Shown here: in pieces, positions 1-23,448 of the stretch | Numbering within the stretch: position 1 is the first letter of the stretch | Layout of the letters: each line of letters starts with the position of its first letter | NCBI GenBank assembly: GCA_040905425.1 | Contig: JBBDRO010000077.1 | Coordinates: 1 to 23,448 of the forward strand | Source of the DNA: Gemmatimonadota bacterium | Lineage (GTDB): Bacteria; Gemmatimonadota; Gemmatimonadetes; Longimicrobiales; RSA9 | Direction: 5' to 3' | DNA: 23,448 nt | The notes under the pieces: generated by a model | What the model saw: only the letters and a program-made list of their open reading frames with translations | What the model was told of the DNA's origin: nothing | The model's database searches: none | Made by a program: the position numbers and the translations under genes

Positions 1-866
1 TCGTTCACGCGCAGCAACTCGTGCTCGAGCGCGCCGGACAGCTCCGTCCCCGGCGCCGGAGGCAGCCGGTCCGCGGCCGCGGCCGCGACCACCGCCCGGC
101 ACAGGGTGGCCACCGTCACGGCGTCCTCCAGACCGGGGCACGCATCCATCACGCGGATCTCCACCGTGGGATAGACCGGGTGCACGCGCATGGACCAGTA
201 GAGCGTGTGCTTGTCCCGCACCACACCGCCCTCCACCAGCATGTCGGTGAGCCGCCAGAACTCGGCGGCGTTCGCAAAGCGCGGCGGCACGCCGGCGTTG
301 GGCCAGCGGCGGGACAGCAACGTGCGGAAGGAGTCGAAGCCGGTGTCCTCACCCTCGAAGTAGGGTGAGCTGGCGGAGAGCGCCAGCAGATGGGGCAGCC
401 AGGGTCGCACGGCGTTCTGCACCACCACCCGGTCCACCTCCTCGGGCAGCGCCACGTGCACGTGCATGCCGAAGGTGTGCACATCCCGCGCAATGCGCCC
501 GAAGGCGCGCTCCAGCTCCTGGTAGCGGACGTCCTGGGTGCGCCGGTGGCCCTCCCAACGGCTGAACGGATGCAGGCCGGCCGGCACGATGCGCAGCCCC
601 TCCGCCGCGGCGCCCGTGGCCACCTGGAAGCGCAGCCGCGCCAGATCGGTGCGCAACTCCCCAGCACTCTTGCATGGACGGGTGCCCACCTCCAGCATGG
701 TTTCCTGGAACTCCGCGGTGAACTCACCGCTCCAGTCCACCCGCCGCACCTCGGCCGCGCGACTGGCCAGCGCCCCGCTCGCCGGATCCACGAGCTGGTA
801 CTCCTCCTCCACACCGTACGTGTAGTCGGCGGCGGTTCCGGCAACGGGCAAAATGGCGGTCCTCAC
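1..866 (-). CDS. ybdK: YbdK/GCS2-family carboxylate-amine (glutamate--cysteine) ligase; 3' end runs off the left edge
   Basis: Manually translated minus frame from GTG 866 (alternative TTG 851): MRTAILPVAGTAADYTYGVEEEYQLVDP...EFQETMLEVGT...PAGLHPFS...FGMHVHVA...LLALSASSPYFEG.DTGF.S.R...YWSMRVHPVYPTVEIRVMD. These are typical GCS2 motifs. No stop inside the window, which is probably why the ORF track lacks it. Confidence 0.88.
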   Translation of the reverse strand, partial: MRTAILPVAGTAADYTYGVEEEYQLVDPASGALASRAAEVRRVDWSGEFTAEFQETMLEVGTRPCKSAGELRTDLARLRFQVATGAAAEGLRIVPAGLHPFSRWEGHRRTQDVRYQELERAFGRIARDVHTFGMHVHVALPEEVDRVVVQNAVRPWLPHLLALSASSPYFEGEDTGFDSFRTLLSRRWPNAGVPPRFANAAEFWRLTDMLVEGGVVRDKHTLYWSMRVHPVYPTVEIRVMDACPGLEDAVTVATLCRAVVAAAAADRLPPAPGTELSGALEHELLRVN

Positions 867-983
867 GGGCAGAAGTGGCAGAATCGGACGGGAATCATAG
901 GCCCGAGTGTGGCCGCCGACAAATGCACGAACCGTGCGCGCCGGGGGCGCTCGCGTCGCGGGCGGGCTCCGGCTACAGGGCAC

Positions 984-1012
984 TTCCCTCCGGGCCCGCG
1001 CGGCGCTATCTT
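984..1012 (+). promoter_or_regulatory. Putative sigma70-type promoter of the ATP-grasp/GNAT/kamA operon
   Basis: TTCCCT (984-989) - 17 nt - TATCTT (1007-1012); the -35 is a weak match. Predicted TSS ~1019. Confidence 0.4.
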
Positions 1013-1114
1013 TCCTGCCGAGGAAGCATGGAGTCCGGCGCCGCCCCCCTGGGGGCCGACCGGCGCGGCTGCCACCGCCTACCTCCCCGGGGCTACCGGG
1101 ACATCGCCACCAAC

Positions 1115-1143
1115 CGCGTCATCCTCCGGGAGGCGCGTTTTTT
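1115..1143 (+). terminator. Intrinsic terminator in the 5' leader of the operon (attenuator candidate)
   Basis: CGCGUC-A-UCC[UCCG]GGA-GGCGCG: 9-bp stem with one bulge and a cUNCGg tetraloop, followed directly by T6 (1138-1143). It ends 10 nt before ATG 1154. Confidence 0.6.
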
Positions 1144-1153
1144 CATAGGTGTC

Positions 1154-2257
1154 ATGGACGCACTGCGCATCGGCTTCGCCTTCAATCAGAAGCCACAGCT
1201 TTCCGCGGAAGCGGACGAGGACCCTCCCAGTAGCGCGGGGCCGAGCCACAGCGCTCTGCCCCACGCCGACGCGCCCGGCGCCGACCCGCCGCTCGACGAC
1301 GTTTACGCCGAGTGGGATGACCCCGCCACCATCGCCGCGGTGGAAGCCGCGCTCCAGACCCGCGGGCAGGTGATCCGCCTGGAAGCGCGTGACACCTTTC
1401 CGGCCGCGCTCGCGGCCGCCCGACCCGACATTGTCTTCAACATCGCCGAAGGGCTGCGCGGAGTGAATCGCGAGGCACACGTGCCGGCGATCTGTGAATT
1501 CTACGGCATCCCCCACACGGCCAGCGACGCGCTCACCCTGGGGCTGGCGCTCGACAAGCGGCGGGCCAAGGAGATCTTCCTGGCGCGCGGCATCCCCACG
1601 GCGTCCTGGGCCGTGCTCGAGCACGGCGCCGAGGCCTTCGACGCGCTGGCCGGCGATGACGGCCCGTGGATCGTCAAGCCGCTGCTGGAGGGCTCCAGCA
1701 AGGGCATTCCCGAGTCCGCCTTCTGCACCGGGGTGGCCGCCGTGGCGCGGCGCGTGGACGCCGTGGCCGAGGCGTATGCCCAGGCGGCGCTGGTGGAGGC
1801 CTTCCTGCCGGGCCGCGAGTTCACCGCGGCGGTGCTGGGCAACGGCGAAGGTGCCCGCGTGCTGCCGCTGGTGGAGATCCGCTTCGACGCGCTACCGGCC
1901 GGCGCCCTGCCCCTCTACGGCTACGAGGCCAAGTGGGTGTGGGACACCACCGAGGTGCCCTTGCCGATCTTTGCCTGCCCGGCGGAGCTGGAGCCGGCGC
2001 TGGCGGACGCACTCACGCACACCGCCCTACAGGCGTACCACGCGCTCGGCTGCCGCGACTGGGCGCGCGTGGACCTGCGCCTGGACGCCCTGGGCACGCC
2101 CAACGTGATCGAGGTGAACCCGCTGCCGGGCATCCTCCCCGACCCGCGCCAGAACTCCTGCTTCCCCAAGGCCGCGCGCGCCGCGGGCATGAGCTATGAC
2201 GCGCTCATCGTGAGCGTGCTGGACGCCGCCCTGGCGCGCTACGGGATGGCCTCGTGA
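1154..2257 (+). CDS. D-Ala-D-Ala-ligase-like ATP-grasp ligase #1 (non-canonical, KamA-associated)
   Basis: Motifs FNIAEG, IVKPLLEGSSKGI, EAFLPGREFT, YEAKW, ARVDLR, EVNPLPG. Start set at ATG 1154 (MDALRIGFAFNQK, the first beta-strand of the fold); an in-frame ATG also exists at 1028. Confidence 0.85.
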   Translation: MDALRIGFAFNQKPQLSAEADEDPPSSAGPSHSALPHADAPGADPPLDDVYAEWDDPATIAAVEAALQTRGQVIRLEARDTFPAALAAARPDIVFNIAEGLRGVNREAHVPAICEFYGIPHTASDALTLGLALDKRRAKEIFLARGIPTASWAVLEHGAEAFDALAGDDGPWIVKPLLEGSSKGIPESAFCTGVAAVARRVDAVAEAYAQAALVEAFLPGREFTAAVLGNGEGARVLPLVEIRFDALPAGALPLYGYEAKWVWDTTEVPLPIFACPAELEPALADALTHTALQAYHALGCRDWARVDLRLDALGTPNVIEVNPLPGILPDPRQNSCFPKAARAAGMSYDALIVSVLDAALARYGMAS

Positions 2258-3282
2258 GCCTGCGCGTGGCGCTGCTGCACGACCCCGCCGCCGAGCGGCC
2301 CGGCGCACCGCCCGATGCGTGCGGCGTGGCCGAGGCGCTCGCCGCGGTGGCGAAGGCGCTCCAGGAGGCGGGCCACACGCCGTGCCTGGTGCCCGCGTGC
2401 GGCACGCTCGACCACTGGCTGGCCGCACTGGGCGCGCTGGCACCCGACGTGGTCTTCAACCTGTGCGAGGGCACGGGCGGGGACGAGCTCGACGAAGTGC
2501 GCGTGGCCGCCGCCGTGGCCGACCTGGGCCTGCCGCACACCGGCAGCCCGGCAGCCACGCTGGCGCTGGCGCGCCACAAGGGGAGCACCAACGCGCTCCT
2601 GGCCGCGGCGGGCGTGCCGGTGGCGGACTGGACGCTGGTGGAGGACGCCGCGCTCCCGGCCTGGGACGCCTGGCCCGCGATCGTGAAGCCGGCCGCCGAA
2701 GACGCCTCGGTGGGCATAGGGGCCGGCTCGGTGGTGGAGGACCGCGCCGGACTGCAGCGTGCGCTCGCGGCCGCGCCGCGCCCCGCCCTGGTGCAACGCT
2801 ACCTGCCCGGCCGCGAGTTCAACGTGGCCTTCGTGGGCACCACGGTGCTCCCGGTGGCCGAGATATGCTTCGACGCCTGGCGCACGGACGCCTTCCCGCG
2901 CGTGACCTACGCGGCCAAGTGGGCGGCGGGCTCCGCCGACGACCTGGGCACCCGCCCCGTCTGTCCCGCGCCGCTGGACGCCGCCGCGACGGCGCGCCTC
3001 CAGGCGCTGGCCCGGGAGGCGTGGGCGGTGGTGGGTGGCACGGGTTACGGCCGCGTGGACCTGCGCATGGACGCCGCCGGCACGCCGCACGTGCTCGAGG
3101 TGAATCCCAACGCCGACCTGGCGCCCGACGCGGGGCTGGCCCGCATGGCCGCCGCGGCGGGCTGGAGCTACACGGAGCTGGTCGAGCGGATCCTGGCGGC
3201 AGCGTTGGCGCCGGATCCGGGCCGCGGCGCGGCTCATAGCACCATGGGCGCCCCGGCCGGCCTGGCCATGGTGGCGTCATGA
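2254..3282 (+). CDS. D-Ala-D-Ala-ligase-like ATP-grasp ligase #2 (non-canonical)
   Basis: Motifs FNLCEG, IVKPAAEDASVGI, YLPGREFNV, TYAAKW, YGRVDLR, EVNPNADL. GTGA start/stop overlap with the previous gene. Confidence 0.85.
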   Translation: MSLRVALLHDPAAERPGAPPDACGVAEALAAVAKALQEAGHTPCLVPACGTLDHWLAALGALAPDVVFNLCEGTGGDELDEVRVAAAVADLGLPHTGSPAATLALARHKGSTNALLAAAGVPVADWTLVEDAALPAWDAWPAIVKPAAEDASVGIGAGSVVEDRAGLQRALAAAPRPALVQRYLPGREFNVAFVGTTVLPVAEICFDAWRTDAFPRVTYAAKWAAGSADDLGTRPVCPAPLDAAATARLQALAREAWAVVGGTGYGRVDLRMDAAGTPHVLEVNPNADLAPDAGLARMAAAAGWSYTELVERILAAALAPDPGRGAAHSTMGAPAGLAMVAS

Positions 3283-3827
3283 CCAACGCCGTACCCGCCA
3301 TGGCCGTCCGCCTGGGCGCCCTGCGCCCCACGCATCGCGCCGCCATCGCCGCGCTGCTCACCGATACGGGCTTCTTCCGTACCGAAGAAGTGGCGGTAGC
3401 GTTGGAAGTCCTGGATGTGTATCTGCAGCACCCCGATCTGGATTACGCCGCCGTGGGCGCCTTCACCCCCGGCGGGGATCCGGTCGGTTACGCGGTATGG
3501 GGCCCCACGCCCTGCACCGCGGGCACGTTCGATCTCTACTGGATCGCCGTGTCCCGCGCCGTGCAGGGCGCCGGGGTCGGTTCCCTACTACTCACGGAGG
3601 TGGAACGAAGGTTGGCTCGCACGGATGCCCGACTCGTGGTCGTGGAAACCTCTTCCCAACCGCTCTATGAACCCACGCGCGCGTTCTACGTGCGGCGCGG
3701 TTACGAGGAGGTGGCACGAGTACCGCACTTTTACGCCGATGGCGATGATCGGGTGATCTTCGCCAAGCGCATCCGACCTTACAGCCTGGCCGCCGCGCCG
3801 GGCGCTGAAGCGAGCCTATTATCATGA
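3279..3827 (+). CDS. GNAT-family N-acetyltransferase
   Basis: Acetyl-CoA motif A LYWIAVSRAVQGAGVGSLLL and motif B TRAFYVRRGY. ATGA overlaps at both ends. Confidence 0.88.
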   Translation: MTNAVPAMAVRLGALRPTHRAAIAALLTDTGFFRTEEVAVALEVLDVYLQHPDLDYAAVGAFTPGGDPVGYAVWGPTPCTAGTFDLYWIAVSRAVQGAGVGSLLLTEVERRLARTDARLVVVETSSQPLYEPTRAFYVRRGYEEVARVPHFYADGDDRVIFAKRIRPYSLAAAPGAEASLLS

Positions 3828-5059
3828 GCGCAAACTGGCAGGAGGCCCTGCGGGGCAGCCTCACCACCGTGGACGAACTGGTCGAGCGCTTCGGCGCAGA
3901 CAACGTGGACCGCGTGGCCGTCGAGCAGGCCATCGAACGCTTCAACCTGCGCATCACGCCGGCGGCGCTGGCGCAGATCAAGGAAGTGGGGGACCCCTTC
4001 TGGAACCAGTACGTCCCCATGCCGGCGGAGCTGGAGGTCCACGACGGCATCGTGGACTCGCTGGACGAGGACGCCGACTCGCCGGTGCCTAACCTGACGC
4101 ACCGCTACCCGGACCGGGTGCTGTTCCTGGTCTCCCCCGTGTGCGCCACGTACTGCCGCTTCTGCACGCGGCGGCGCAAGGTGGGGGACCCGGAGAAGAT
4201 CCCGCTGAACCAGTTCGATTCGGCGTTCGCCTATCTGCGCGAGCACACCGAGGTGCGGGACGTCATCCTCTCGGGCGGCGACCCGTTCATGCTCTCCGAC
4301 CGGCGCATCGAGTTCTTTCTCTCCACGCTGCGGCAGATCCCGCACATCGAGATCATCCGCATCCACACGCGCATGCCCAGCCACCTGCCCGAGCGCATCA
4401 CGCCCGAGCTGTGTGACATCGTGCGCCGCCACCACCCCGTGTACATCAACGTGCACTTCAACCACCCGGACGAGCTGACGCCCGCGGCCGAACGCGCGCT
4501 GGCGCTGCTGGCCGACAGCGGCGCGCCGCTCGGCTCCCAGACCGTGCTGCTGAAGGACGTCAATGATGATCCGCTGATCATGAAGAGTCTCATGCAGAAG
4601 CTGCTGAAGGCGCGCGTGAAGCCCTACTACATCTACCAGGCGGACGTGGTGGCGGGCGGCGAGCACTTCCGCACGCAGATGGAGAAGGGGCTGGAAATCA
4701 TCCGGGCGCTGCGCGGCTGGACGAGCGGACTCGGGGTGCCGCACTACGTCATCGACGCCCCGGGCGGAGGCGGCAAGATCCCCATCCTCCCCGAGTACGT
4801 GGAGAAGGTGAGCGCCACCGAGGTGGTGCTCCGCAACTATGCGGGTGAGGTCTTCCGCTACCCACTGCCGGCCGCTCCGGCGGGTCAGCCGTCCATTGCC
4901 GCTTGCGGGGACGGCGCCGCCATCATCCCCATCACGCGCCGCAAGCGGAGCAAGCCGGCCGCGGAGGGTGCCAAGGCCACTCCGGCGCCGAGGCGCGCAC
5001 GGCCGGCCAGGCAAGCCGCCCGTGAGAGCGGGCCGGGGATCACGCTGCTGGACGTCTGA
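3824..5059 (+). CDS. kamA: KamA-family radical SAM/PLP enzyme, lysine 2,3-aminomutase-like
   Basis: THRYPDRVL; CATYCRFCTRRR (CxxxCxxC); ILSGGDP; HFNHPDE; PYYIYQAD; LRGWTSG; DAPGGGGK (PLP lysine). Confidence 0.92.
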   Translation: MSANWQEALRGSLTTVDELVERFGADNVDRVAVEQAIERFNLRITPAALAQIKEVGDPFWNQYVPMPAELEVHDGIVDSLDEDADSPVPNLTHRYPDRVLFLVSPVCATYCRFCTRRRKVGDPEKIPLNQFDSAFAYLREHTEVRDVILSGGDPFMLSDRRIEFFLSTLRQIPHIEIIRIHTRMPSHLPERITPELCDIVRRHHPVYINVHFNHPDELTPAAERALALLADSGAPLGSQTVLLKDVNDDPLIMKSLMQKLLKARVKPYYIYQADVVAGGEHFRTQMEKGLEIIRALRGWTSGLGVPHYVIDAPGGGGKIPILPEYVEKVSATEVVLRNYAGEVFRYPLPAAPAGQPSIAACGDGAAIIPITRRKRSKPAAEGAKATPAPRRARPARQAARESGPGITLLDV

Positions 5060-5080
5060 ACCCGTCCGTTCCTGAGCGAC

Positions 5081-5113
5081 GAGGCCCGGCGTGCACCGCG
5101 CGCGCCGGGCCTT
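5081..5113 (+). terminator. Strong stem-loop after kamA (probable operon end; weak U tract)
   Basis: AGGCCCGGCGTGC (5082-5094) pairs with GCGCGCCGGGCCT (5100-5112): 13 bp with one G-U and a 5-nt loop. Confidence 0.5.
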
Positions 5114-5147
5114 CCACCACGCCGCACATTCTGTACATTCAGGGGTG

Positions 5148-7349
5148 ATGCAGACATCCCTGATCGACCGCGTCGTGGTGCTCTGGCTCGGCACCGTCCT
5201 GGTGGCCGGTTGCGGACCTTCCGGTCCGCCCACGTACAGCCGGGACGTGGCGGGCCTGCTGCATGAGAACTGCAGCAGTTGCCACCGCCCGGAGGGCGTG
5301 GCGCCGTTTCCGCTACTGACGTACGAAGACGCGGCCGCGCACGCCGACCTGATCGCCGCCACCGTGGCCTCGGGCCGCATGCCGCCCTGGCTACCGTCGG
5401 TCGAAACGCCGCCGCTCGAGGGAGAGCGGCGACTCTCCGGTGAGGAGATCGAGATGCTCGGCGCGTGGGCGGCGGCGGGCGCCCCGCGGGGTGACGCGGC
5501 GAGCGAGCCGGCGCCGCCCGTCTGGCCGGACGGCTGGCTGCTCGGCGAGCCGGACATGGTGCTCGAGATGCGTGACACCTTCCACGTCCCGTCCGGCGGT
5601 CACGATCACTTCCGCAACTTCGTGCTGCCCGTCCCGCTGGAGGAAGGCCGTTGGGTGCGCGGTGTGGAACTGCGGCCGAACAATTACGGTCCCCTGCACC
5701 ATGGCGTGATTCGCGTGGATCCCACCCCGGCATCGCGCATGGCCGCCGCCGCCGACTCCGTGCCCGGCTTTGCCGAGATGTTCTCCCTGTCGGAGTCCCA
5801 GGCGGCGGGCGAGTTTTTTCTGGGGTGGACGCCAGGGTTGATGCCGAGCCTCTTCCCCGAGGGCATGGCCTGGCGCCTGGAGCCGTCCACGGACATCGTG
5901 GTTCAGCTCCACCTCATGCCCACGGGCCAGCCCGAGGACGTGTCCCTCCAGATCGGTCTCCACTTTGCCGACGAGCCGCCCACCGTGCGGCCCGTGCTGC
6001 TCCGGCTCGGGGGCACTACGCTCGACATCCCGCCCGGGGATTCCGCCTACCTGGTGGAGGACCGCATCACCATTCCCGCGGACGTACAGGCGCTGGCGGC
6101 CTACCCGCACGCGCATTTCCTGGCCCACACCATGGAGGTGTGGGGGGAGACGCCCGACGGCGAGCGCATCACGCTCATGGACATCCCCGACTGGGACTTC
6201 AACTGGCAGGACTCCTACCGTTACAAGGACCCGGTTGCGCTGCCCGAGGGCACCGTGGTGCACCTCCGCTATGTCTATGACAATTCCGCCGCCAACCCGC
6301 AGAATCCGCACGATCCGCCCCAGCGCGTGGTCTACGGTCCGGAATCCAGGGACGAGATGGCGGAGTTCTACCTGCAGCTCGTGCCTGAGAACCCCGCCCG
6401 GCTGGACGTATTGAGGGCCACCTTCGCCAGCAAGTACGCCCGGGAGATGATGCGCGGCTGGCGCCACCTCATCGAGCTGGATCCGGATGATGCCTGGGCG
6501 CATCTCGGACTGGGCATCGTGGCCCACGAGCAGGGTGATCTGGACACGGCGGAGGAGCACTTCCGGAGGGCCATACAGGCGCAGCCCGACTACCCGCGCG
6601 CACACCACCGTATGGCGCTGGTTCATGAGGCGCGGGGCAATACGGCAGCCGCCATGGCCGCCTACCGGAGGGCCATCGCGGGGCCCGTGGAGAACCTGCC
6701 GGCCCTGAACGACTTCGGCATTCTGCTGGCGGTCTCCGGTGATCCGGCCGCGGCGGCGCCCATCCTGGAGCGGGTCATTGCCGTCAACCCCGCGCATGTA
6801 GAAGCGCGCAACAATCTGGGTGGCGTCCTGCTCGAACTGGGCCGGGTCGAGGAGGCGCTGACCCACCTGGAGCGCGCGGTGGCGTTGAACCCGCGCCTGG
6901 CCGGAGCGCGCTTTCACCAGGCGTACGCGTTGATCAGACTGGGCCGCGCGGAGGAGGGGGTGCAGGCGCTGAACCAGGGCCTGGCCGTGGACGGCGGCAA
7001 CGTGCAGGCCGCACTCACCGTGGCCTGGATGCTGGCCACCCATCCCGACCCGGCGGTGCGCCGCCCGCCGCTGGCCGCCGAACTGGCCGAGCAGATCCGT
7101 GGCCTCACCGGGCCGCACCCGATCGCGTCGGACGTCATGGCGGCGGCCCTGGCCGCCAACGCCCGCTACACGGAGGCGGTGCAGCTGGCGCAGGAAGCCA
7201 TAGGCGAGGCCCGGCGCAGGGGGCAGTCGGCCCTCCTTCCCGGGCTCGAAGCGCGTGCCGACCTGTACCGGGCCAGGCAGCCGTTCATCGATGATGCAGC
7301 GGGGGCGCCGACGCTGCCCGCCACGCGGATCCTCGGCTCCACGCCGTAG
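5148..7349 (+). CDS. Lipoprotein: c-type heme (CxxCH) + copper type II (PHM/DBH-like) monooxygenase domain + TPR repeats
   Basis: Lipobox LVAGC; CSSCH plus GRMPPW; LHH, QLH, PHAH, DEM; WDFNWQ.SY; C-terminal TPRs (e.g. AWAHLGLG, EARNNLGGVL). Start ATG 5148 (or GTG 5145) preferred over 5091. Confidence 0.8.
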   Translation: MQTSLIDRVVVLWLGTVLVAGCGPSGPPTYSRDVAGLLHENCSSCHRPEGVAPFPLLTYEDAAAHADLIAATVASGRMPPWLPSVETPPLEGERRLSGEEIEMLGAWAAAGAPRGDAASEPAPPVWPDGWLLGEPDMVLEMRDTFHVPSGGHDHFRNFVLPVPLEEGRWVRGVELRPNNYGPLHHGVIRVDPTPASRMAAAADSVPGFAEMFSLSESQAAGEFFLGWTPGLMPSLFPEGMAWRLEPSTDIVVQLHLMPTGQPEDVSLQIGLHFADEPPTVRPVLLRLGGTTLDIPPGDSAYLVEDRITIPADVQALAAYPHAHFLAHTMEVWGETPDGERITLMDIPDWDFNWQDSYRYKDPVALPEGTVVHLRYVYDNSAANPQNPHDPPQRVVYGPESRDEMAEFYLQLVPENPARLDVLRATFASKYAREMMRGWRHLIELDPDDAWAHLGLGIVAHEQGDLDTAEEHFRRAIQAQPDYPRAHHRMALVHEARGNTAAAMAAYRRAIAGPVENLPALNDFGILLAVSGDPAAAAPILERVIAVNPAHVEARNNLGGVLLELGRVEEALTHLERAVALNPRLAGARFHQAYALIRLGRAEEGVQALNQGLAVDGGNVQAALTVAWMLATHPDPAVRRPPLAAELAEQIRGLTGPHPIASDVMAAALAANARYTEAVQLAQEAIGEARRRGQSALLPGLEARADLYRARQPFIDDAAGAPTLPATRILGSTP

Positions 7350-10247: not shown

Positions 10248-11828
10248 TCAGCGGATCGGCGGGGGTGCGGCATCCGTGCCGCCCACACCACCGAAGGTGT
10301 AGACATCGATCTGCAGCGAGCCCAGCTCACGACCGGGCACCGGCAGGTGCAGGAAGACGCCCTCCTGGAGCCGGCCGAAGCCGCGCGAGTCCAGGTAGCC
10401 GCGGTTCGACTCGTGCGCCGCCAGCTCGTTCATCCGCTCCCACATGAGCGCGTCGTACAGGTCGCCACACTGCTGGGCGCCGGTCGTGGGCTTCTGCGGC
10501 ACGCACGAACTGGTGTCATTCCCGATGCCAGCCGCCGTGGCGGGCGGCAACCCGCCAATGCCCACGCGACTGATGTTGATCAGGTCGGCCGCGCCTGCCA
10601 GGTCACCCAGGAAGTAGAGCGCCTCGGCACGGAACAGGTTGGCTTCCACCATGGGGAGGTGATCATGGTCGATGAAGCCGTAGCTGTTGTACTCCGACTC
10701 GAACTGGTAGAAGGTGCGGTGGTAAAGGCCGCGCTCCGGCGAGAAGACGTTGCTGGCGTCGTATTCCCAGTACACGCCGCGATCGAGATGCTCGTTACCC
10801 TGCGGGTAGCGCAGATCCGGCGTCACCATGTCCCAGCGATCGCGCTCCGACCACGGCAGGGACAGCCAGTTGTTGTAGCCGCCCGAAACGTCCGCCGGCC
10901 CCACCATGCGGGCGTCCCCGTACGAAACGAACGTGCCCTCGCCGATCAGGTACCGGACGTTCTGCAGGTACCAGAGGCTCGAGTTGGTGTAGATCCAGTA
11001 CGTATCCTCGATACCGTTGTCCAGCCGGCGGATGACCTCGTTCCAGTCCAGGTTCTCCCGCTCCTCCGGGGTGCGGGCACCGTAGACCATGGTCTTGGCC
11101 GCGTAGTGGTTGGCGAAGCGGGCAATGTCCGCCGCCGTGAGCTCCGTGCCGTCCCGCATCGGTCCGAACCAGGGCGAGGGGATGGTCACGTCCGGATGCG
11201 CCTCGGCGTAGGCAATGGTCTCATCGAACATGTCGATCGCGTGGGCCAATACCTCGGGATAGGGCGCCATCTCCCGCTCGTCGACCGGCGTGTTCAGGTC
11301 GGCAGGCGTCTGGATGAAGGCCTGGTCAAAGAGCTGGCCCAGGTACATGTGCCCCGTCGCCATGTTGAAGAGGGACCAGAGCACCGCGCGCTCCGAGAAA
11401 TCCTCCTCGTCCTCGCCCACGATCAGCTCCAGGCCACCGTCGATGGCGGCAATGGCGTCCACGCCGTTGGAGATGGCCTCGTAGGCGTACTCCCAGGGGA
11501 AGCGCGCCACACCCGAGATCGTCGACACCGGGTCATTGTTGAAGGTCGGGCGCGGCTCGGAGGTGATCTCCAGCTGACCTGCGTTGGCGAAGGTGCCGCT
11601 GAACTCGTCCGCCACGTTGGGCATGACCCACAGATGCGAAGTGGATCGGTGGATGAGGGTGTAGAGCGAGGCGTAGGTGCTCCCCACCAGCGCGTACACC
11701 GCCTCCGGATCGGCCTGCGCGCGATCCCGATCGGGTGCGTTCGTATTGACCACGTCCAGGTCCTGGCACGCCGCCGTCATGGCCGCGAGCAGGAGCACTG
11801 CCGTGCTCGTCCATCGGAACGATCTCAT
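10248..11828 (-). CDS. SusD/RagB-family nutrient-binding outer-membrane lipoprotein
   Basis: Lipobox MTAAC-QDLDVVNTNAP; EANLFRAEA...AADLINISR; LMWERMNEL; LPVPGREL. Lies directly downstream of the SusC-type gene; AGGAG RBS. Confidence 0.85.
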   Translation of the reverse strand: MRSFRWTSTAVLLLAAMTAACQDLDVVNTNAPDRDRAQADPEAVYALVGSTYASLYTLIHRSTSHLWVMPNVADEFSGTFANAGQLEITSEPRPTFNNDPVSTISGVARFPWEYAYEAISNGVDAIAAIDGGLELIVGEDEEDFSERAVLWSLFNMATGHMYLGQLFDQAFIQTPADLNTPVDEREMAPYPEVLAHAIDMFDETIAYAEAHPDVTIPSPWFGPMRDGTELTAADIARFANHYAAKTMVYGARTPEERENLDWNEVIRRLDNGIEDTYWIYTNSSLWYLQNVRYLIGEGTFVSYGDARMVGPADVSGGYNNWLSLPWSERDRWDMVTPDLRYPQGNEHLDRGVYWEYDASNVFSPERGLYHRTFYQFESEYNSYGFIDHDHLPMVEANLFRAEALYFLGDLAGAADLINISRVGIGGLPPATAAGIGNDTSSCVPQKPTTGAQQCGDLYDALMWERMNELAAHESNRGYLDSRGFGRLQEGVFLHLPVPGRELGSLQIDVYTFGGVGGTDAAPPPIR

Positions 11829-11888
11829 GTCATTCTCCTATCAGCGCGGCCGGGGCCGCGGAAAGTTCGGTAACGAAAGAAGCGGGGT

Positions 11889-11930
11889 GGCGCCGGCCCG
11901 GCCCCTGTGCCAGGGACCAGACCGCACGCC
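11889..11930 (-). other. Intercistronic RNA stem-loop between susC and susD
   Basis: Minus strand CGGUCUGGUCCCUG-GCA-CAGGGGCCGGGCCG: 14 bp with 3 G-U pairs, extendable by GGCGU/GCGCC. Confidence 0.5.
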
Positions 11931-11939
11931 TCCAGCCGA

Positions 11940-14900
11940 TCAGAACGTGATCTCCACGGTCCCCGTGAAGGTGCGCGTGTTCGGCCACGAGAAATCGTCG
12001 AACCGGTTCGTGACGTTGCCCACCTCGGGATCGAATCCGCTGTACCCCGTCAGCGTGAGCAGATTACGACCCACGATGCCCAGCCCGATGCTGCTCGCGA
12101 AGCGGCCGATGCCGATGGCATCGAGCTGCCCGCTGTTCAGACGGTAGAGCGCCGACAGAGAACGCAGCTTCACGAATGTGCCGTCCTCCGCGAAGTGGTT
12201 CGTGGCGTCGGCCCGGTTGTAGATGTTCTGGTAATACGGATCCGGCTTCTTCAGCTCGGTCGGCTTGCCGGACTGATCCAGGTCCACGTCACGCTCGTGC
12301 TGGTAGAGGCGCTGCTTGGTGTAGTTGTACACCTTGCCGCCAACCTGCGAGTGCACCTGGGCGTGCAGGTTCAGCCCGCCCCACGTGACGTTGTTCAGCC
12401 AGCCCAGCTGGAAGTCAGGCAGGAAGCTGCCGAGCTTCTGCTTCAGCGGAGCACCCGCGTCATCCAGCTCCACGATGGGGAGGCCCCAGTCGTACTCGTG
12501 GTCACCGATCGCGACCTTGGTGCCCCACAGGTCCTTTTCCACACCGTCGGTGTAGTCATTGCCTGCACCGACAGGGACCAGGTAGCCGTCATCGTTGATC
12601 TGGAAGTTGCCCGCCACATCGCTGCCGTGACGCGCCACGATCATCGACTCGTTCAGCGACGTGAGGTGGCGGAAACCCCAGAAGTCGGAGGTGCTGCTGC
12701 CCTCGCAGAAGTTGAGCTGCCCGGCCTCGCCGGTAGCGTAGCAGGCCCGGTTCCACTCGTCGATCCTGCTCCAGAGCTTGTCACCCACCACGGTGGTGGT
12801 CCAGCTCAGGCCGGGACGGTTCACGAGCGACGCCTGGACGGTGGCCTCGAGGGTCTCACCGCTGAACACGCCGGTGTTGAAGTAGCGCGTGCTGTAGCCC
12901 GTGTACGCCGGCGTGGGCAGACCAATGATCTGGCCCGTGGTCTCCTGCATGGCGTAGGTCAACTCCACGGAGTACTTGTCCAGGATGACCATGTCCGTAC
13001 CGAACTCAATCTCCGTGGTGTGCTCCGGGGCCAGGCGCCGGTTGCCCAGCGTGTTCTTGGCCACCGAGCAGGACTCGTCATTGCAACTCACCGACCAGGT
13101 CTCGTACTGCGCGGAAAAGCCGGGTCGTCCGCCCGCCGTGCCGATGGCGGCGCGGGGCTTGAACTCACTCAGCGCCTCGAAGGGCCACCAGGCCTCCTCG
13201 GACATGCGCCAGGCACCGGCCGCGCGGTAGTACGTCTGCCAGCGCTCCTCGGGGCCGAACAGCGAGCTGCCGTCGCGGCGTACCAGGAAGTCACCGATGT
13301 ACTTACCGGCGTAGTCCGCGCCCGTGTTCAGCGAGAAGCCGTTGGCGCGGATCTCGATGAGTGAGGAGCTGACGCTCTGGTTCATGGCCACGCTCAGGTC
13401 CTCGATCCCGGGAATGCCGAGATTGGAGCCGGAGGCGCTGAAGCGATCCCGCTTCTCCCGCTCGAAGAGGCCACGCGCCGTGTTGCGCAGCGTGAGGTCC
13501 CCGAGCTGCCAGATGCCGTTCACGCTGAGATAGCCGTTGTAGTTGTCCGTGAGCTGTGCGTCACGGGCCAGGCTCCCGGAGGACGGGTTGGGATCGTCAT
13601 TGTCGATCGACTGCGGGATACCCTTGGCCGTGTACCGGTAGTCGAAGATCTCGGAGCGGTCGTAGCTGGCGTTGCCCGACATGCTCAGCCACGAGAAGGG
13701 GTTGTAGCGCGCGTCACCACTGATCAGCGTACGCGTGCGCCGGTCCTCGGACTCGCGCGTCTGCGCGTTCCAGAACGGGTGCTCCGAGTTGTACGTGGAG
13801 TCCGGCTGCTGCGGGAAGAGCCCCGTCGCCGGATCGCGCACGTTCAGATTGATGTCCACCGGCCACATGTACATGTTCCAGAAGGACGTCCCCGACAGGT
13901 CATTCTGGACGGAGCGCGAGTAGTTGGTGCTGACGGCAAAGCTGAAGTCATCCGCCAGGCGGTGATCCAGGTTCAGCCGGCCGGAGTTGCGCACGAAGCC
14001 CGACGGCGCCGCCAGCGAGCCTTCCTCGTCCAGCCGGTTGACGGACGCCAGGAAGTTGCTGCTCGCGGCGTTGTGGCTGAGGTTCAACGCGCCGTTCATG
14101 TACGCGCCCGGCTGATAGAGCCCGGACAGATTGTCATAGATCTGCTTGTACGGATTGTCGTAGAACAGATCGAAGTCCGGCACGCGCTCCTCGCGCGGCA
14201 CCACGTTGCCGTCGTAGTCGGTGAAGTCACCGTTCTCGTTGACCACCCAGCGGTGATGCTTGTTGTATTCGAACTTCGGCGAGGTGCTACGACCGATCTC
14301 CGCCCGGCCCGAAATGCGCGTCTGGTCAAGGGCCAGCCCCTGGCCGCGCGAGGTGGTGATGTTGATCACGCCGGCCGCGGCGCGCGAGCCGTAGAGCGAT
14401 GCGGCTGCCGCGCCCTTCACGATCTCCACGTCCTGGATGTCGAGCGACTCCAGGTCCACCGTGGAACCACCGTATTCCATGGTGCTGGACATGATCACGC
14501 CGTCCACGATGATCATCGGGGCCTGCTCGTTCTCGATGCTCGTGGGCGTGCGCAGCATGATGCTGGCCTCGTTGCCCGGCTGACCCGTGCCCTGGATCAT
14601 GTTCACACCGGCCACCTTACCCTGCAGCGAGTTCAGGGCGCTGGTGGCGGGCACGGCCTTCAGATCCTGCTCACTGATGCGGCCGACGGAGAAGGGAATC
14701 TTCACGCCCTCGATGGGGTCGGAGACGCCCGTCACCACGACGTTGTCGATGGAGAGGACCGACTGGCCGAGCTCGAAGTTGACCTCCACCGTTCCGCCGG
14801 CGGGGACGACCACGTCACGCTGCGTCTCGGACGTGTACCCGATGAGCTGGGTCTGCACCCGATACGTGCCCGCGGGCACGTTCTGGATGAGGAATCGACC

Positions 14901-15092
14901 GTTCTCTCCGGTCGGGAATCCCAGCTGGGTGCCGGGCAGGAAGACCTGGACGCCCTGCAGGGGCTGTCCGGTTTCACTGTCCGTTACCGCGCCGGTAATG
15001 GTTCCTGTTTCCTGGGCTGTCAGCGGTGCGGGTGCTGACAACGCAAGACCGAGCGCTGCTGCGAGCAGCGCGAGTACGCCTCGTGATCTCAC
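11940..15092 (-). CDS. SusC/RagA-family TonB-dependent outer-membrane transporter
   Basis: Signal peptide; carboxypeptidase-regulatory-like N-domain (GTITGAVTDSETGQPLQGVQV); plug motifs LQGKVAGV, PMIIVDGV, EIVKGAAAASLYGSRAAAGVINITT; RRDGSSLFG; GYSGFDPE; C-terminal Phe. Start GTG 15092 behind AAGGAGG. Confidence 0.92.
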   Translation of the reverse strand: MRSRGVLALLAAALGLALSAPAPLTAQETGTITGAVTDSETGQPLQGVQVFLPGTQLGFPTGENGRFLIQNVPAGTYRVQTQLIGYTSETQRDVVVPAGGTVEVNFELGQSVLSIDNVVVTGVSDPIEGVKIPFSVGRISEQDLKAVPATSALNSLQGKVAGVNMIQGTGQPGNEASIMLRTPTSIENEQAPMIIVDGVIMSSTMEYGGSTVDLESLDIQDVEIVKGAAAASLYGSRAAAGVINITTSRGQGLALDQTRISGRAEIGRSTSPKFEYNKHHRWVVNENGDFTDYDGNVVPREERVPDFDLFYDNPYKQIYDNLSGLYQPGAYMNGALNLSHNAASSNFLASVNRLDEEGSLAAPSGFVRNSGRLNLDHRLADDFSFAVSTNYSRSVQNDLSGTSFWNMYMWPVDINLNVRDPATGLFPQQPDSTYNSEHPFWNAQTRESEDRRTRTLISGDARYNPFSWLSMSGNASYDRSEIFDYRYTAKGIPQSIDNDDPNPSSGSLARDAQLTDNYNGYLSVNGIWQLGDLTLRNTARGLFEREKRDRFSASGSNLGIPGIEDLSVAMNQSVSSSLIEIRANGFSLNTGADYAGKYIGDFLVRRDGSSLFGPEERWQTYYRAAGAWRMSEEAWWPFEALSEFKPRAAIGTAGGRPGFSAQYETWSVSCNDESCSVAKNTLGNRRLAPEHTTEIEFGTDMVILDKYSVELTYAMQETTGQIIGLPTPAYTGYSTRYFNTGVFSGETLEATVQASLVNRPGLSWTTTVVGDKLWSRIDEWNRACYATGEAGQLNFCEGSSTSDFWGFRHLTSLNESMIVARHGSDVAGNFQINDDGYLVPVGAGNDYTDGVEKDLWGTKVAIGDHEYDWGLPIVELDDAGAPLKQKLGSFLPDFQLGWLNNVTWGGLNLHAQVHSQVGGKVYNYTKQRLYQHERDVDLDQSGKPTELKKPDPYYQNIYNRADATNHFAEDGTFVKLRSLSALYRLNSGQLDAIGIGRFASSIGLGIVGRNLLTLTGYSGFDPEVGNVTNRFDDFSWPNTRTFTGTVEITF

Positions 15093-15262
15093 CGTTCCTC
15101 CTTGGCAGGTGGGCAGTATGGCAAACATCTAGCGGTGAATGGATCGGCCGTCATTCGACGACCGGTAGGGAAACTGCATACGTCCGGGGCCGCGCGGATG
15201 GCGCGCTCCCCCGCAGGGTGCGGCTGTGACGGCACCGCAGCCGAATTCGATGGGGTAATCTG

Positions 15263-16868: not shown

Positions 16869-17795
16869 CTACGTGTCCGCGCCCGCGGCCCGCGCCAGCG
16901 CCGCCGCGCCCCGGGCGGCGTCCCGCTGCGCCGCGTTGAGCGTCCGGCGCACCGCCCCCGCCCCACCGCGCGCCAACGCCGCGTCGAAGGCCGCCGTGAG
17001 GGACGGCGCGCCCGTGAAGAGGCCGCCCACGGCGGCCACCGGCGGCGGCTCCGGCCACGGTCCCAGCCCGCGCACCAGCGCCGCCACCAGCTCGGCCAGG
17101 TCGTCCGCCGCCGTGCGCACCAGGGTGGCGGCCACGCCGTCTCCGGCCGCCGCGGCGGCGAGCACCGCGGGCGCCAGCCCCGCCACGGTGGCCTTGCCGG
17201 CACCCGCCACCCAGGCGGGCAGCGCCTCGGGCGCCGCCCCCGCGGCTGTATCCCGCACCGCCGCGCTCAACCGGGTGGGGCGGCCACGCCCGTCATGGGC
17301 GCGCAGCACGGCCCGCACGGCTGCCCGGCCCAGCCACCAGCCGCTGCCCTCGTCCCCCACCACCGCCCCCCAGCCACCCGCGCGGGCCGTGCGCCCGTCC
17401 GCGGCCCGGCCCCAGGCGCTGGAGCCCGTGCCGGCCACCACCAGGATGCCCGCGTCGCGCGCGCCGAAGGCGGCCTGAAAGGCGGCCTCCAGATCGGTGA
17501 CCAGCAGCACACGGTCGGCCACGCCCCCGCGCGCGAGCACCTGCGTGGCCGCCGCCCGCACCACGGGCGCGCCCGCGCCCGCCGCCGCGCAGCACAGGAC
17601 GTCCGCCGTGCTGGCGCCGCCCGCCTCCAGCAAGACGTCGCGCGCCAGCGCCACCATGCGCTCGCCCCCCGCCTCCACGGCCCCCGGGTCCAGCAGGCCC
17701 GGACCGCCCGCGGCGCGGGCCAGCACCCGGCCGTGGCCATCCTCCACCACGGCGCGGCTACGCGTACCGCCGCCGTCGATGCCCACCACGATCAT
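16869..17795 (-). CDS. BadF/BadG/BcrA/BcrD-family sugar kinase (N-acetylglucosamine/N-acetylmuramate kinase-like)
   Basis: GIDGGGTRS; VVAGTGS; RAGGWGAVVGDEGSGWWLG. Starts 4 nt after the symporter stop. Confidence 0.85.
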   Translation of the reverse strand: MIVVGIDGGGTRSRAVVEDGHGRVLARAAGGPGLLDPGAVEAGGERMVALARDVLLEAGGASTADVLCCAAAGAGAPVVRAAATQVLARGGVADRVLLVTDLEAAFQAAFGARDAGILVVAGTGSSAWGRAADGRTARAGGWGAVVGDEGSGWWLGRAAVRAVLRAHDGRGRPTRLSAAVRDTAAGAAPEALPAWVAGAGKATVAGLAPAVLAAAAAGDGVAATLVRTAADDLAELVAALVRGLGPWPEPPPVAAVGGLFTGAPSLTAAFDAALARGGAGAVRRTLNAAQRDAARGAAALARAAGADT

Positions 17796-17799
17796 GGCG

Positions 17800-19260
17800 T
17801 CAGGAGCCCGGCACGGGCCCGCCGCGCAGCCGCGCGCTCGCGCTCCCCACCAGCACGGTGAGCGCCGAGCCTACCAGCGAGAACCACAGCGGGTCGATGA
17901 GCTTCTCCATGAGGCCGAACTGCTGCGCCGCCCACAGCGCCGTCATGGCCACGATGGCCACCGCCATGCCGCGCACGGCGTCCGTGCCGTCCGCCCGGCG
18001 GCTGAGCAGCGCCAGGAAGAAGCCGCCCAGGAGGCCGCCATAGGTGAAGGAGGCAATCTGCAGCGCCACCACCACCACCGGCGTGCCCTGCTGCACGAAC
18101 TGGAAGAGCAGCGCCCCGCCCACCAGCACCACCGCCCAGAGCAGCGTGAAGCGTTTGCCCACCACCACCAGCCGCGCCGCGTCCGCCTCGCGCCGGAAGG
18201 GCGCATACAGATCGTAGGTGGTGGCCGATGCAAGCGAATTGAGCGACGAGCCCACCGTGGACATGGCCGCCGCCAGGATGCCCGCGATGACCAGCCCCGT
18301 TACGCCGACCGGCAGCGCCTCCACGATGAAGGTGGGAAACACCTCGTCGGGCGTGGCGAAGGTGCGGCCGGCGTAGTGCACAAAGAGCCCCGCGCCCACC
18401 GCCAGGAAGAGCGCGAACTGCAGGAACACGCCCACCCCAGAGAGCACCAGCGCCTTGCGAGCGCCGGAGAGGTTCGGCGCCGCCAGCAGGCGCTGCACGA
18501 TGAGGTGGTCCGCGCCGTGGGAGGCCATGGACAGGAACGCCCCCCCGAGCAGCCCCGTGAGCACCCACTGCGTGGAGGCAAAGCCCTCCCCGGCGTGGAT
18601 GATGGTCAGCTTGCCCGCCGCGTCCGCGCCGGCCAGCATGGCGCTCCAGCCGCCGTCCACCAGCCCGTTCAGCGTGACCAGCGCCGCCACGCCGGCAAAG
18701 ACGTACAGGAAGAGCTGCACCACGTCCACCCAGACCACCGCCCGTAGGCCGCCCCAGTACGTGTAGCCCAGCGTGAGCACGCCCGTGAGCAGGATGGACT
18801 CCGTGTAGGGCAGCCCCGTGATGAGTTTGATGGGGATGGCCGTGGCAAAGAGGCGCACGGCGTCGGCAAAGGCGCGCGTCACCATGAAGATCACGGACGC
18901 GAAGCGCCGCGTGCCGCCGCCGAAGCGGCGCTCCAGGAGCGCGTAGGCCGTCTCCAGCTCGCCGTCGAAGTAGCGCGGCAGCAGCCAGGCCGCTACCGCC
19001 ACGCGCCCCAGCATGTAGCCGCCCGCCAGCTGCAGCATCCAGAAGTCGCCGGTGAAGGCGGCGGCGGGCACGCTGATGACCGTGAGGGCGCTGGTCTCGG
19101 TGGCCACCACCGAAAAGCAGATGGCCCACCACGGCATGCTGCGGTCGGCCAGGAAGTAGTCGCGCGCGTCCTTCTGGCGCTGGCCGAGCCATACGCCGAA
19201 GGCGGTGACGCCCGCCAGGTAGGCCACCAGGACCGCGATGTCGAGAAAGGTGAAGGACAT
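17800..19260 (-). CDS. Sodium:solute symporter family protein (probable amino-sugar transporter)
   Basis: DYFLADRSMPWWA; SVVATETSALT; GGLRAVVWVDVVQ; QRLLAA; AAAMSTVGSSLNSLA; many hydrophobic helices. Start ATG 19260. Substrate inferred from neighbouring genes. Confidence 0.88.
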   Translation of the reverse strand: MSFTFLDIAVLVAYLAGVTAFGVWLGQRQKDARDYFLADRSMPWWAICFSVVATETSALTVISVPAAAFTGDFWMLQLAGGYMLGRVAVAAWLLPRYFDGELETAYALLERRFGGGTRRFASVIFMVTRAFADAVRLFATAIPIKLITGLPYTESILLTGVLTLGYTYWGGLRAVVWVDVVQLFLYVFAGVAALVTLNGLVDGGWSAMLAGADAAGKLTIIHAGEGFASTQWVLTGLLGGAFLSMASHGADHLIVQRLLAAPNLSGARKALVLSGVGVFLQFALFLAVGAGLFVHYAGRTFATPDEVFPTFIVEALPVGVTGLVIAGILAAAMSTVGSSLNSLASATTYDLYAPFRREADAARLVVVGKRFTLLWAVVLVGGALLFQFVQQGTPVVVVALQIASFTYGGLLGGFFLALLSRRADGTDAVRGMAVAIVAMTALWAAQQFGLMEKLIDPLWFSLVGSALTVLVGSASARLRGGPVPGS

Positions 19261-19400
19261 GGGGGCCAAGTATGCCCCGCCCCTACCGTCCGGCGAAAGG
19301 GCTGCTCCCGCAGCCGCGTATCTGGACTGCGCTATAGAGGAGGGTGATGAAGGGATCGTCTTACACCGAGCCTGACCACGAACGCAGGCAGTAATAGCTA

Positions 19401-19447
19401 TTGACAATGATCGTAGTCAGCCATAGGTATGACTACGCGTGCTGTCA
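19401..19447 (+). promoter_or_regulatory. hipBA promoter with two palindromic HipB operators (TGAC-N10-GTCA)
   Basis: TTGACA at 19401-19406, possible -10 TAGGTA at 19424. Operators at 19402-19419 and 19430-19447, 10 bp apart. Confidence 0.7.
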
Positions 19448-19462
19448 TTCACAGGAGGGTTG

Positions 19463-19816
19463 ATGTTGCTCCGGCGACCTCACGACCTGGCCGGCCTCTT
19501 TCGCGACGGCCGCGCCCGCTTGGGTTGGTCTCAGAATCAGCTGGCAGAAACCGTCGGCGTTTCCCGCCAGTGGATCTCGCTGGTGGAGAACGGTAAAACC
19601 AGCGTCGAGTTCGACCTCGTGCTAGCTGCTCTGCAGGCCCTCGGGTACTACCTTCACGTGGACACGTCCGACCTGCCCGCGCGCAACGTGGGCGTAGTCA
19701 TCGATTTCCCGAGCGGGTCCGTCCACGAATCGTCCGGGCGCACGCCGCTGACCCGCCATGGAGACCCCCTCGGCAGACAACGAGCCAGGCGCGCGCGGAG
19801 GGATCGTGATGAATGA
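19463..19816 (+). CDS. hipB: XRE/HTH antitoxin, HipB-like
   Basis: AGGAGG RBS; HTH RARLGWSQNQLAETVGVSRQWISLVENGK; overlaps the hipA start by 8 nt. Confidence 0.85.
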   Translation: MLLRRPHDLAGLFRDGRARLGWSQNQLAETVGVSRQWISLVENGKTSVEFDLVLAALQALGYYLHVDTSDLPARNVGVVIDFPSGSVHESSGRTPLTRHGDPLGRQRARRARRDRDE

Positions 19817-21095: not shown

Positions 21096-21191
21096 CAACG
21101 CGGCGCGCGTCGAGGTTGCGCAGGCGTGGGACCTACAACCGTCCGTAGCGGCACGGGGCCGGCGGGAGATCTCTCCGCGAAGGCGGCCAGC

Positions 21192-23060: not shown

Positions 23061-23105
23061 GGACTCACTTTCCCGGACGTCTGTGAAACGGGCGCCAGGC
23101 GGGAG

Positions 23106-23448
23106 CTACCGCACCCGCGCGGCGTCCGGCCGGCGCAGCACCGGCAGGTCGGTGATGGCCCGCTGCAAAGCATCGGCCAGCTCGCGTCGCAGCGGGATGT
23201 GGCGCTGGTTGGCGCGCGTGGGGTTCACGCGGTTGGTGAGGATGACCAGGAAGAGGTCCCGCTCCGGATCCATCCACAGGCTCGTGCCGGTGAAGCCGGT
23301 GTGGCCGAAGCTCCGCTCGCTGAAGTAGTCCCCGGCCGAGGAGCGCCCCCCGGGCGTGTCCCAGCCGAGCGCGCGGCTGGAGGTGGTGTCCGCGCGCGTG
23401 GTGAAGTGGCGCACCGTCTCCGCCCCTATCAAGCGACGTCCCCCGTAC
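23106..23448 (-). CDS. Serine hydrolase (beta-lactamase/AmpC-like family), C-terminal part only
   Basis: RALGWD...FGHTGFTGTSLWMDPERDLFLVILTNRVNP. The frame stays open to the right edge (YGGRRLIG...). Confidence 0.82.
   Translation of the reverse strand, partial: YGGRRLIGAETVRHFTTRADTTSSRALGWDTPGGRSSAGDYFSERSFGHTGFTGTSLWMDPERDLFLVILTNRVNPTRANQRHIPLRRELADALQRAITDLPVLRRPDAARVR

Follow-up and report, generated by a model that had tools for sequence, protein, structure and literature searches.

A conserved operon of two ATP-grasp ligases, an acetyltransferase and a KamA-type aminomutase in Gemmatimonadota: a candidate route to beta-lysine amides

The DNA analysed here is a stretch of 23,448 nucleotides (nt) from a Gemmatimonadota bacterium of the order Longimicrobiales (assembly GCA_040905425.1, contig JBBDRO010000077.1, positions 1 to 23,448), referred to as the window in the following. 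The genome comprises 4.12 Mb with 70.5% GC and is 96.7% complete. The window carries an operon of four genes, which encode two amide ligases with the fold of D-alanine-D-alanine ligase (Ddl), a GNAT-type acetyltransferase and an aminomutase that contains a radical S-adenosylmethionine (SAM) domain and depends on pyridoxal phosphate (PLP):

1154-2257, forward strand: A1, Ddl-fold ATP-grasp amide ligase of 367 amino acids (aa), PF07478
2254-3282, forward strand: A2, second Ddl-fold ATP-grasp ligase, 342 aa, PF07478
3279-3827, forward strand: GNAT, small single-domain acetyltransferase, 182 aa, PF00583/PF13508
3824-5059, forward strand: KamA, radical-SAM/PLP aminomutase, 411 aa, LAM_C and Radical_SAM domains

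The genes are joined by start/stop overlaps of 4 nt (GTGA at 2254-2257, ATGA at 3279-3282 and ATGA at 3824-3827), and all open reading frames (ORFs) and overlaps lie where a preliminary description of this DNA had placed them. Since the 4-nt overlap of A1 and A2 recurs in 50 of the 73 loci in which both ORFs were called, the coupling is not a matter of chance. For GNAT, ATG 3300 is a possible alternative to the start at 3279, as it is where a number of homologues begin. Longer in-frame starts of A1 (GTG 875 and ATG 1028) were rejected, as its homologues start near 1154.

Conservation was judged from the best 80 of 363 confirmed genome loci matched with A1 as query. The complete set of four genes is present in 66 of these 80 loci, that is, in 66 of the 71 that are long enough to show them; the order is A1-A2-GNAT-KamA in 64 of the complete loci and A1-GNAT-KamA-A2 in two. 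The incomplete loci are cut by a contig end (nine), have no linked KamA (four) or contain A1 alone (one). The closest relatives of the window operon are found in Longimicrobiales and other Gemmatimonadota, and the module is present in at least six phyla (Gemmatimonadota, Desulfobacterota with the Desulfuromonadales, Bacteroidota, Planctomycetota, Acidobacteriota and Fibrobacterota), with four gene orders in total across module loci. It had been supposed that such arrangements exist in other bacteria under the annotation 'D-Ala-D-Ala ligase'; both the distribution and the database label turned out as claimed.

An orthologue of GNAT (E <= 4.4e-16) is encoded in 138 of 301 sampled Gemmatimonadota genomes (about 46%; 156 matches minus 18 weak ones) and in 33 of 121 sampled genomes of the Desulfobacterota (27%), the phylum of locus L034. 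Eight regions were taken from these 33 genomes, and seven contain the full module, six in the order KamA-ligase-ligase-GNAT and one as GNAT-fusion-A1-A2-KamA. Whatever the gene order, every complete module aligned holds one ligase of each class. Among 39 hand-picked Gemmatimonadota genomes, KamA adjoins GNAT in 8 of the 12 GNAT-positive ones and is above cut-off in 1 of the 27 GNAT-negative ones. A search of plasmids gave 113 records, all below 60% identity, the best (38%) from rhizobia. We found no description of an A1-A2-GNAT-KamA operon in the open literature; a 2009 survey of ATP-grasp neighbourhoods, which may list the gene set, was not covered. Taken together, A1-A2-GNAT-KamA is a real, widespread and uncharacterised pathway, a variant of ATP-grasp amide biosynthesis.

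Some irregular loci should be mentioned here. Two apparent A1-A2 fusions (P0005, P0006) were set aside as likely artefacts of a deletion or of assembly; KamA of L010 and L011 and A2 of L059 are split by frameshifts in their assemblies. On a phage-like IMG/VR contig of 42 kb (L168), an A1-like ligase gene overlaps KamA at 3181-5302, with a T4-like gene for the major capsid protein (gp23) some 2.3 kb away and a SAM-lyase-family gene nearby; A2 and GNAT were not found in 12 kb of this contig.

The two ligases are 39% identical and fall into two classes, with the motifs AEWD / NIAEG-RE / YEAKW / NPLPG / SCFP in A1 and NLCE / EDAS / YxAKW / NPNPD / AGL in A2. Both match PF07478 (107 and 82 bits), and both stay below the cut-off of the Ddl model PRK01372 (169.5 and 128 against 243 bits). 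Neither matches PF01820, whose sole match in the genome is a gene on contig C8 (C8:53659-54681); with 341 bits against PRK01372 this is a canonical Ddl. The separate canonical ddl, which was to be looked for, is thus present in this genome, and a separate PF01820 gene was found in 15 of 15 other module genomes tested. In an AlphaFold model of A1 (pLDDT 88.7) the best fold match is DdlB (TM 0.71, 27% identity), and the closest solved folds of the ligases are all Ddl; the fold is Ddl-like, not RimK-like.

As in the Ddl and Van ligases, equivalents of the residues K97, K144, E187, R255, D257, E270 and N272 are present. The residues for ATP and acyl-phosphate are invariant as K135, K175, E222, R305, D307, E320 and N322 in A1, and invariant in A2 are K109, K145, R267, D269 and N284. 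Unlike in Ddl, the substrate pockets are rebuilt (for the N-terminal pocket, as read from an alignment alone): the motifs NIAEG-NRE in A1 and NLCEG in A2 align where Ddl has LHG and GED, and both ligases have Glu at the position of His63 and Trp at that of Tyr216. A1 further has Arg in place of Glu68 and an invariant EWD motif, and it retains Gly276 and Ser281. A2 has EDAS for EGSS, by which Ser150 is changed, Asp at Gly276 and Gly at Ser281. Judged from their sequences, A1 and A2 are not D-Ala-D-Ala ligases, because the cut-offs are missed, the substrate pockets are rebuilt and a canonical ddl lies elsewhere. The added acidic residues of the pockets would fit cationic substrates. Since A1 has kept the acceptor-carboxylate serine of Ddl, its most likely reaction is the coupling of beta-lysine to a second amino acid. 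The acceptor of A2 is most likely a carboxylate-free amine, such as a diamine, a polyamine or the side chain of lysine, because Gly replaces Ser281 and Asp replaces Gly276.

A role in the cell wall, either in making an alternative peptidoglycan building block with beta-lysine at the stem terminus or in the cross-bridge, or as redundant D-Ala-D-Ala ligases, had been considered and is highly improbable. It would agree with the fold of the closest solved ligases, with the title of the structure of the GNAT orthologue, 2R7H ('putative D-alanine N-acetyltransferase'), and with a gene for a peptidoglycan-binding domain upstream of the module in L191. However, the L191 gene is not conserved in other regions, no mur gene is among the neighbours scanned, and about half of the Gemmatimonadota genomes do without the module. 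Both ligases miss the Ddl cut-offs and PF01820, the positions of His63, Glu68 and Tyr216 are changed in all aligned members, and a canonical Ddl is retained elsewhere in this genome and in 15 of 15 others.

KamA belongs to the KamA family (TIGR00238, 269.9 against a cut-off of 199.2), and its best equivalog model is that of lysine 2,3-aminomutase (TIGR03820, 439.9), whereas the EpmB model TIGR03821 gives 234 against a cut-off of 369. Its sole match in the PDB is 2a5h, the lysine 2,3-aminomutase of Clostridium (E 3.6e-109). The motif of the lysine 2,3-aminomutase type, already read from the DNA before, is present as CATYCRFCTRRR; the cysteines of CxxxCxxC are C107, C111 and C114. The residues R116, D274 and D311 and the PLP lysine K318, which correspond to R134, D293, D330 and K337 of 2a5h, are invariant in 18 of 18 proteins. 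Since no other KamA gene is encoded in the genome, this is its single copy, and it is most likely a lysine 2,3-aminomutase, as far as residues and models can tell. There is a slim chance that the enzyme acts on something other than free lysine, be it another basic amino acid or an alpha-lysyl product of the ligases, which would lead to a different beta-amino amide. All nine full-type KamA proteins scanned are below the cut-off of TIGR03820 (440-485 versus 525) and the zinc-binding cysteines of 2a5h are absent from KamA, which would be in line with such a substrate; the invariance of the four residues speaks against it, as does the lysine model, which scores best in each of the nine, ahead of those for glutamate and arginine.

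A beta-lysine-making aminomutase that feeds a ligase is also known from EpmA/EpmB, but there the ligase EpmA is similar to lysyl-tRNA synthetase, whereas the ligases described here are ATP-grasp enzymes. EpmA was not found in the genome, where the best match to TIGR00462 is a lysyl-tRNA synthetase of 516 aa below the cut-off, and the only elongation factor P (EF-P) of the genome (contig C38, L178:1489-2052) has a TPGN loop without a modifiable Lys or Arg. Of 15 module genomes, 7 also encode EpmA, which the module therefore does not replace. By this loop and this coexistence, the earlier idea of a protein tag on EF-P is weakened. The broader version, in which the ligases attach beta-lysine or its acetylated form to a protein or another macromolecule with EF-P as one candidate, also seems improbable to us. 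The pocket of A2 would suit a carboxylate-free amine such as a protein lysine, the phage-like contig has its A1-like and KamA genes near the major capsid gene, and RimI is the nearest named family of GNAT, if weakly (36.9 against 86.4 bits). On the other side, the surroundings of the operon showed no conserved small gene that could encode a substrate, and the fold of the ligases is that of Ddl and not of RimK.

AblA and AblB are the enzymes of N-epsilon-acetyl-beta-lysine synthesis. In Bacillus the corresponding pair is KamA/YodP (for KamA, PMC6522883), and the pairing of a lysine 2,3-aminomutase with a GNAT is common to these systems and the operon. Unlike in AblAB, the two ligases are obligate companions here and the GNAT fuses to a ligase. 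The difference from AblB that had been stated is real: GNAT has 182 aa against the 266 positions of the AblB model TIGR03827, and this model has no match in the 96.7% complete genome, although it matched in 6 of 14 genomes as a control. PF09043 (KamD, the lysine 5,6-aminomutase of lysine fermentation) has no matches in the genome, and none in the control genomes either. By these criteria, the operon is not a member of the Ddl, AblAB or EpmAB systems.

The profile of GNAT matches PDB 2R7H at E 4e-51 and the next structure at 5e-9; GNAT belongs to the orthologue family of 2R7H. The protein has a QGxGxG acetyl-CoA motif and the conserved acidic residues E37, E43, D85, E123 and D156. Of 101 longer forms of GNAT, 89 contain a ligase domain and 12 a PF00850 deacetylase; the two GNAT-ligase fusions that were read are of the A2 type. 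Among solved structures, the acetylpolyamine amidohydrolases 9GKZ, 6PHR and 3Q9B are nearest to the PF00850 partner (E 7e-71 to 2e-57). Unlike them, the partner carries a further GNAT-like domain at its N terminus and in some cases the module GNAT at its C terminus; it is encoded outside the window. In PMC11532494, polyamine deacetylase activity of bacteria is ascribed only to cluster 4 of the acetylpolyamine amidohydrolases. The GNAT-deacetylase gene is divergent beside the operon in four Desulfuromonadales loci (L015, L068, L040 and L077); L034 has a truncated copy, and in L184 the deacetylase is fused to GNAT in the first gene of the operon. The genome of the window encodes an unlinked fusion of 581 aa with a GNAT-like and an acetylpolyamine-amidohydrolase-like part (C70:6249-7991, L169; 59% identical), by a response regulator gene. 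GNAT-deacetylases were found in four of the 301 Gemmatimonadota and four of the 121 Desulfobacterota genomes, and all eight are GNAT-positive, one by fusion. The deacetylase is a real partner of the operon, optional because it is rare. Both the fusions and the linked deacetylase suggest that a polyamine-like product is acetylated reversibly.

What is the product of the operon? It is probably a small beta-lysine amide of some kind. Its synthesis by a pathway that is independent of nonribosomal peptide synthetases (NRPS), resembles that of phevamine and ends in an N-acetylated, polyamine-type beta-lysyl amide is our preferred reading and well conceivable, although we would not call it assured. 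According to this model, KamA would convert L-lysine to beta-lysine; its membership in the family is shown, whereas the substrate is deduced from the residues. Both A1 and A2 would turn a carboxylate into an activated acyl-phosphate and then make a single amide bond, as their conserved residues and the chemistry of the family suggest; A1 would make the bond between amino acids and A2 that with a diamine or polyamine. GNAT, a frequent fusion partner of A2, would N-acetylate a free amine, either of the product or of the polyamine, and in some genomes including this one the enzyme with GNAT-like and acetylpolyamine-amidohydrolase-like parts would remove the acetyl group. The product is likely to serve as a protective or regulatory solute of the cytoplasm. 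That an N-acetylated amide or peptide of beta-lysine is made without NRPS had been proposed before, and this proposal gains from the co-occurrence of the genes, the separate Ddl, the lysine residues of KamA and the A2-GNAT fusions; the order given then, with acetylation before ligation, is not favoured over the reverse.

Phevamine A of Pseudomonas syringae is made by HsvABC; its two ATP-grasp enzymes act in turn and link Val and Phe to amidinospermidine (PMC6187163). Like the operon, this pathway is free of NRPS and combines two ATP-grasp ligases with an amine-capping transferase in one operon. The likeness is one of architecture: the phevamine pathway uses Phe, Val and an amidinotransferase and is devoid of an aminomutase and a GNAT, whereas the operon of the window caps with GNAT. 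The end product of the former is an amino acid-polyamine amide, whereas a polyamine is deduced here from the A2 pocket and the link to the deacetylase.

Several observations count against a beta-lysyl-polyamine amide. In the neighbourhoods scanned, neither a polyamine-synthesis gene nor a solute transporter is a regular neighbour. A coupled fold-III decarboxylase was found only in L078 and is absent from that place in L080. Few genomes have the deacetylase (4 of 301 Gemmatimonadota; 8 of 21 module genomes), and kin among its carriers are not independent. KamA itself is below the cut-off of TIGR03820 (439.9 against 525.4), a shortfall that may be due to the missing C-terminal zinc domain, and the roles of Arg134, Asp293 and Asp330 in lysine binding, like those of the Ddl pocket residues including Ser281 as clamp of the acceptor carboxylate, are taken over from the known enzymes. 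A lineage of Gemmatimonadales (L021, L027, L036, L066 and genus g36) has A1-A2-GNAT without a linked KamA; three of the four genomes of the KamA-less loci have a weak KamA-family match of 34-36% and one has none. In two genomes of this lineage (G041:C3 and G118:C2, loci L195 and L196), the sole KamA-family gene is a divergent one at a distance of 10-14 kb, which in G118 adjoins a class III aminotransferase. In the KamA-less lineage the enzyme may have been displaced, or beta-lysine may be dispensable. Finally, the module is split in a genome of the Wallbacteria.

These points bear on an amino-acid-only product, an N-acetylated beta-lysyl di- or tripeptide such as beta-Lys-Lys or beta-Lys-beta-Lys that serves as compatible solute without any polyamine. 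The pathway of N-acetylglutaminylglutamine amide (NAGGN) is an analogue. We consider such a peptide unlikely, but it deserves attention: lysine, ATP and acetyl-CoA would suffice for the four genes, polyamine genes are no regular neighbours, and an acetyl-lysine-like end could also suit an amidohydrolase of this kind. The decarboxylase coupled to the operon in L078 is LysA-like, which also fits. On the other hand, A2 has no acceptor-carboxylate serine, the linked deacetylase is of the polyamine type, and a solute transporter is again no regular neighbour. In detail, the gene in L078 (10633-12087) encodes a fold-III PLP decarboxylase and overlaps the end of a Planctomycetota operon; it scores 162 bits with the LysA model, below the cut-off of 298.

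Returning to the operon of the window, three features flank or precede its genes:

984-1012, forward strand: possible sigma70-type promoter, TTCCCT-17-TATCTT, seen by eye with a spacing alike in relatives; weak
1115-1137, forward strand: leader hairpin, followed by T6 at 1138-1143, roughly 10 nt upstream of A1; may act as an attenuator or pause site
5082-5112, forward strand: GC-rich 3' hairpin (z = -2.36 for 5055-5150)

A promoter scan of the window made no call at 984-1012. The operon had been described as bounded by a leader terminator and a 3' hairpin. Both hairpins exist, but neither was called by the terminator scan, and the 3' one has no U-tract; the leader hairpin was missed because it is bulged. 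Alone it folds with z = -1.88. Together with the T-run, and ahead of the ribosome-binding site, it is kept in seven Gemmatimonadota leaders, picked by eye from nine aligned, which share a consensus stem of 8 bp with 94.6% of cells paired and double-sided changes in two pairs; this covariation was matched by 3 of 500 shuffles. A shorter version is present in most of 20 Gemmatimonadales leaders. A scan of 600-5400 against Rfam gave three chance matches, all below the gathering scores, and no family for the leader.

The loci of Desulfuromonadales and Fibrobacter have a different leader, with a long stem over the ribosome-binding site. About 150 nt upstream of A1 in nine loci (L015, L022, L025, L034, L040, L043, L059, L068 and L077) there is a conserved leader RNA, whose long stem covers the ribosome-binding site and which has a covarying inner hairpin; by eye, an upstream AAAAAG tract of these leaders could instead pair with the same strand, and several have a 5' ORF of 5-13 codons. 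The leader RNA of these nine loci is a candidate translational switch. Attenuation of the operon by its leader is put forward as a hypothesis, because no common aptamer was seen among the leaders compared.

Divergent from the operon lies a gene for a carboxylate-amine ligase of the YbdK/GCS2 type (window 3-860, reverse strand; TIGR02050 above cut-off), cut at the contig end; it was rejected as a member of the module, since it is absent beside the module in the loci scanned. A protein of 733 aa is encoded 88 nt past KamA (5148-7349, forward strand), with a CxxCH motif towards the N terminus, C-terminal tetratricopeptide repeats and a middle region without a Pfam match. Farther on, 10248-15128 (reverse strand) encodes a TonB-dependent receptor and next to it a SusD-like partner (the latter judged by eye, as Pfam gave no match); encoded are also a sodium:solute symporter, a BadF-type kinase, a NagB-PIG-L fusion and a beta-lactamase-family gene at 16869-23447 (reverse strand); the genes of these two regions suggest amino-sugar recycling. 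A toxin-antitoxin pair of a HipB-like helix-turn-helix protein and a HipA kinase (19439-21095, forward strand) lies in a stretch of lower GC amid the sugar-amine genes. In many Gemmatimonadales loci (e.g. L017, L028, L030), the end of the upstream gene is thyX-like, and in L023, L024 and L051 it is folA-like (by eye); these genes are probably shared genome context.

For thousands of module ligases, the database label 'D-alanine-D-alanine ligase' is probably wrong. It is tempting to speculate, although the proposal as a whole is rather doubtful, that beta-lysyl-polyamine amides are a widespread, undescribed class of NRPS-free metabolites, switched by an acetyltransferase and a deacetylase, controlled by lineage-specific leader RNAs and partly carried by at least one phage. 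The system is tractable: its four genes are small, the structure of a GNAT orthologue is known (2R7H), and carriers including Desulfuromonas and Geoalkalibacter are in culture. If the model holds true, beta-lysine would have one more fate besides those in fermentation, in the acetyl-beta-lysine osmolyte, on EF-P and in antibiotics, and the product would be a common metabolite of abundant bacteria of soils and sediments.

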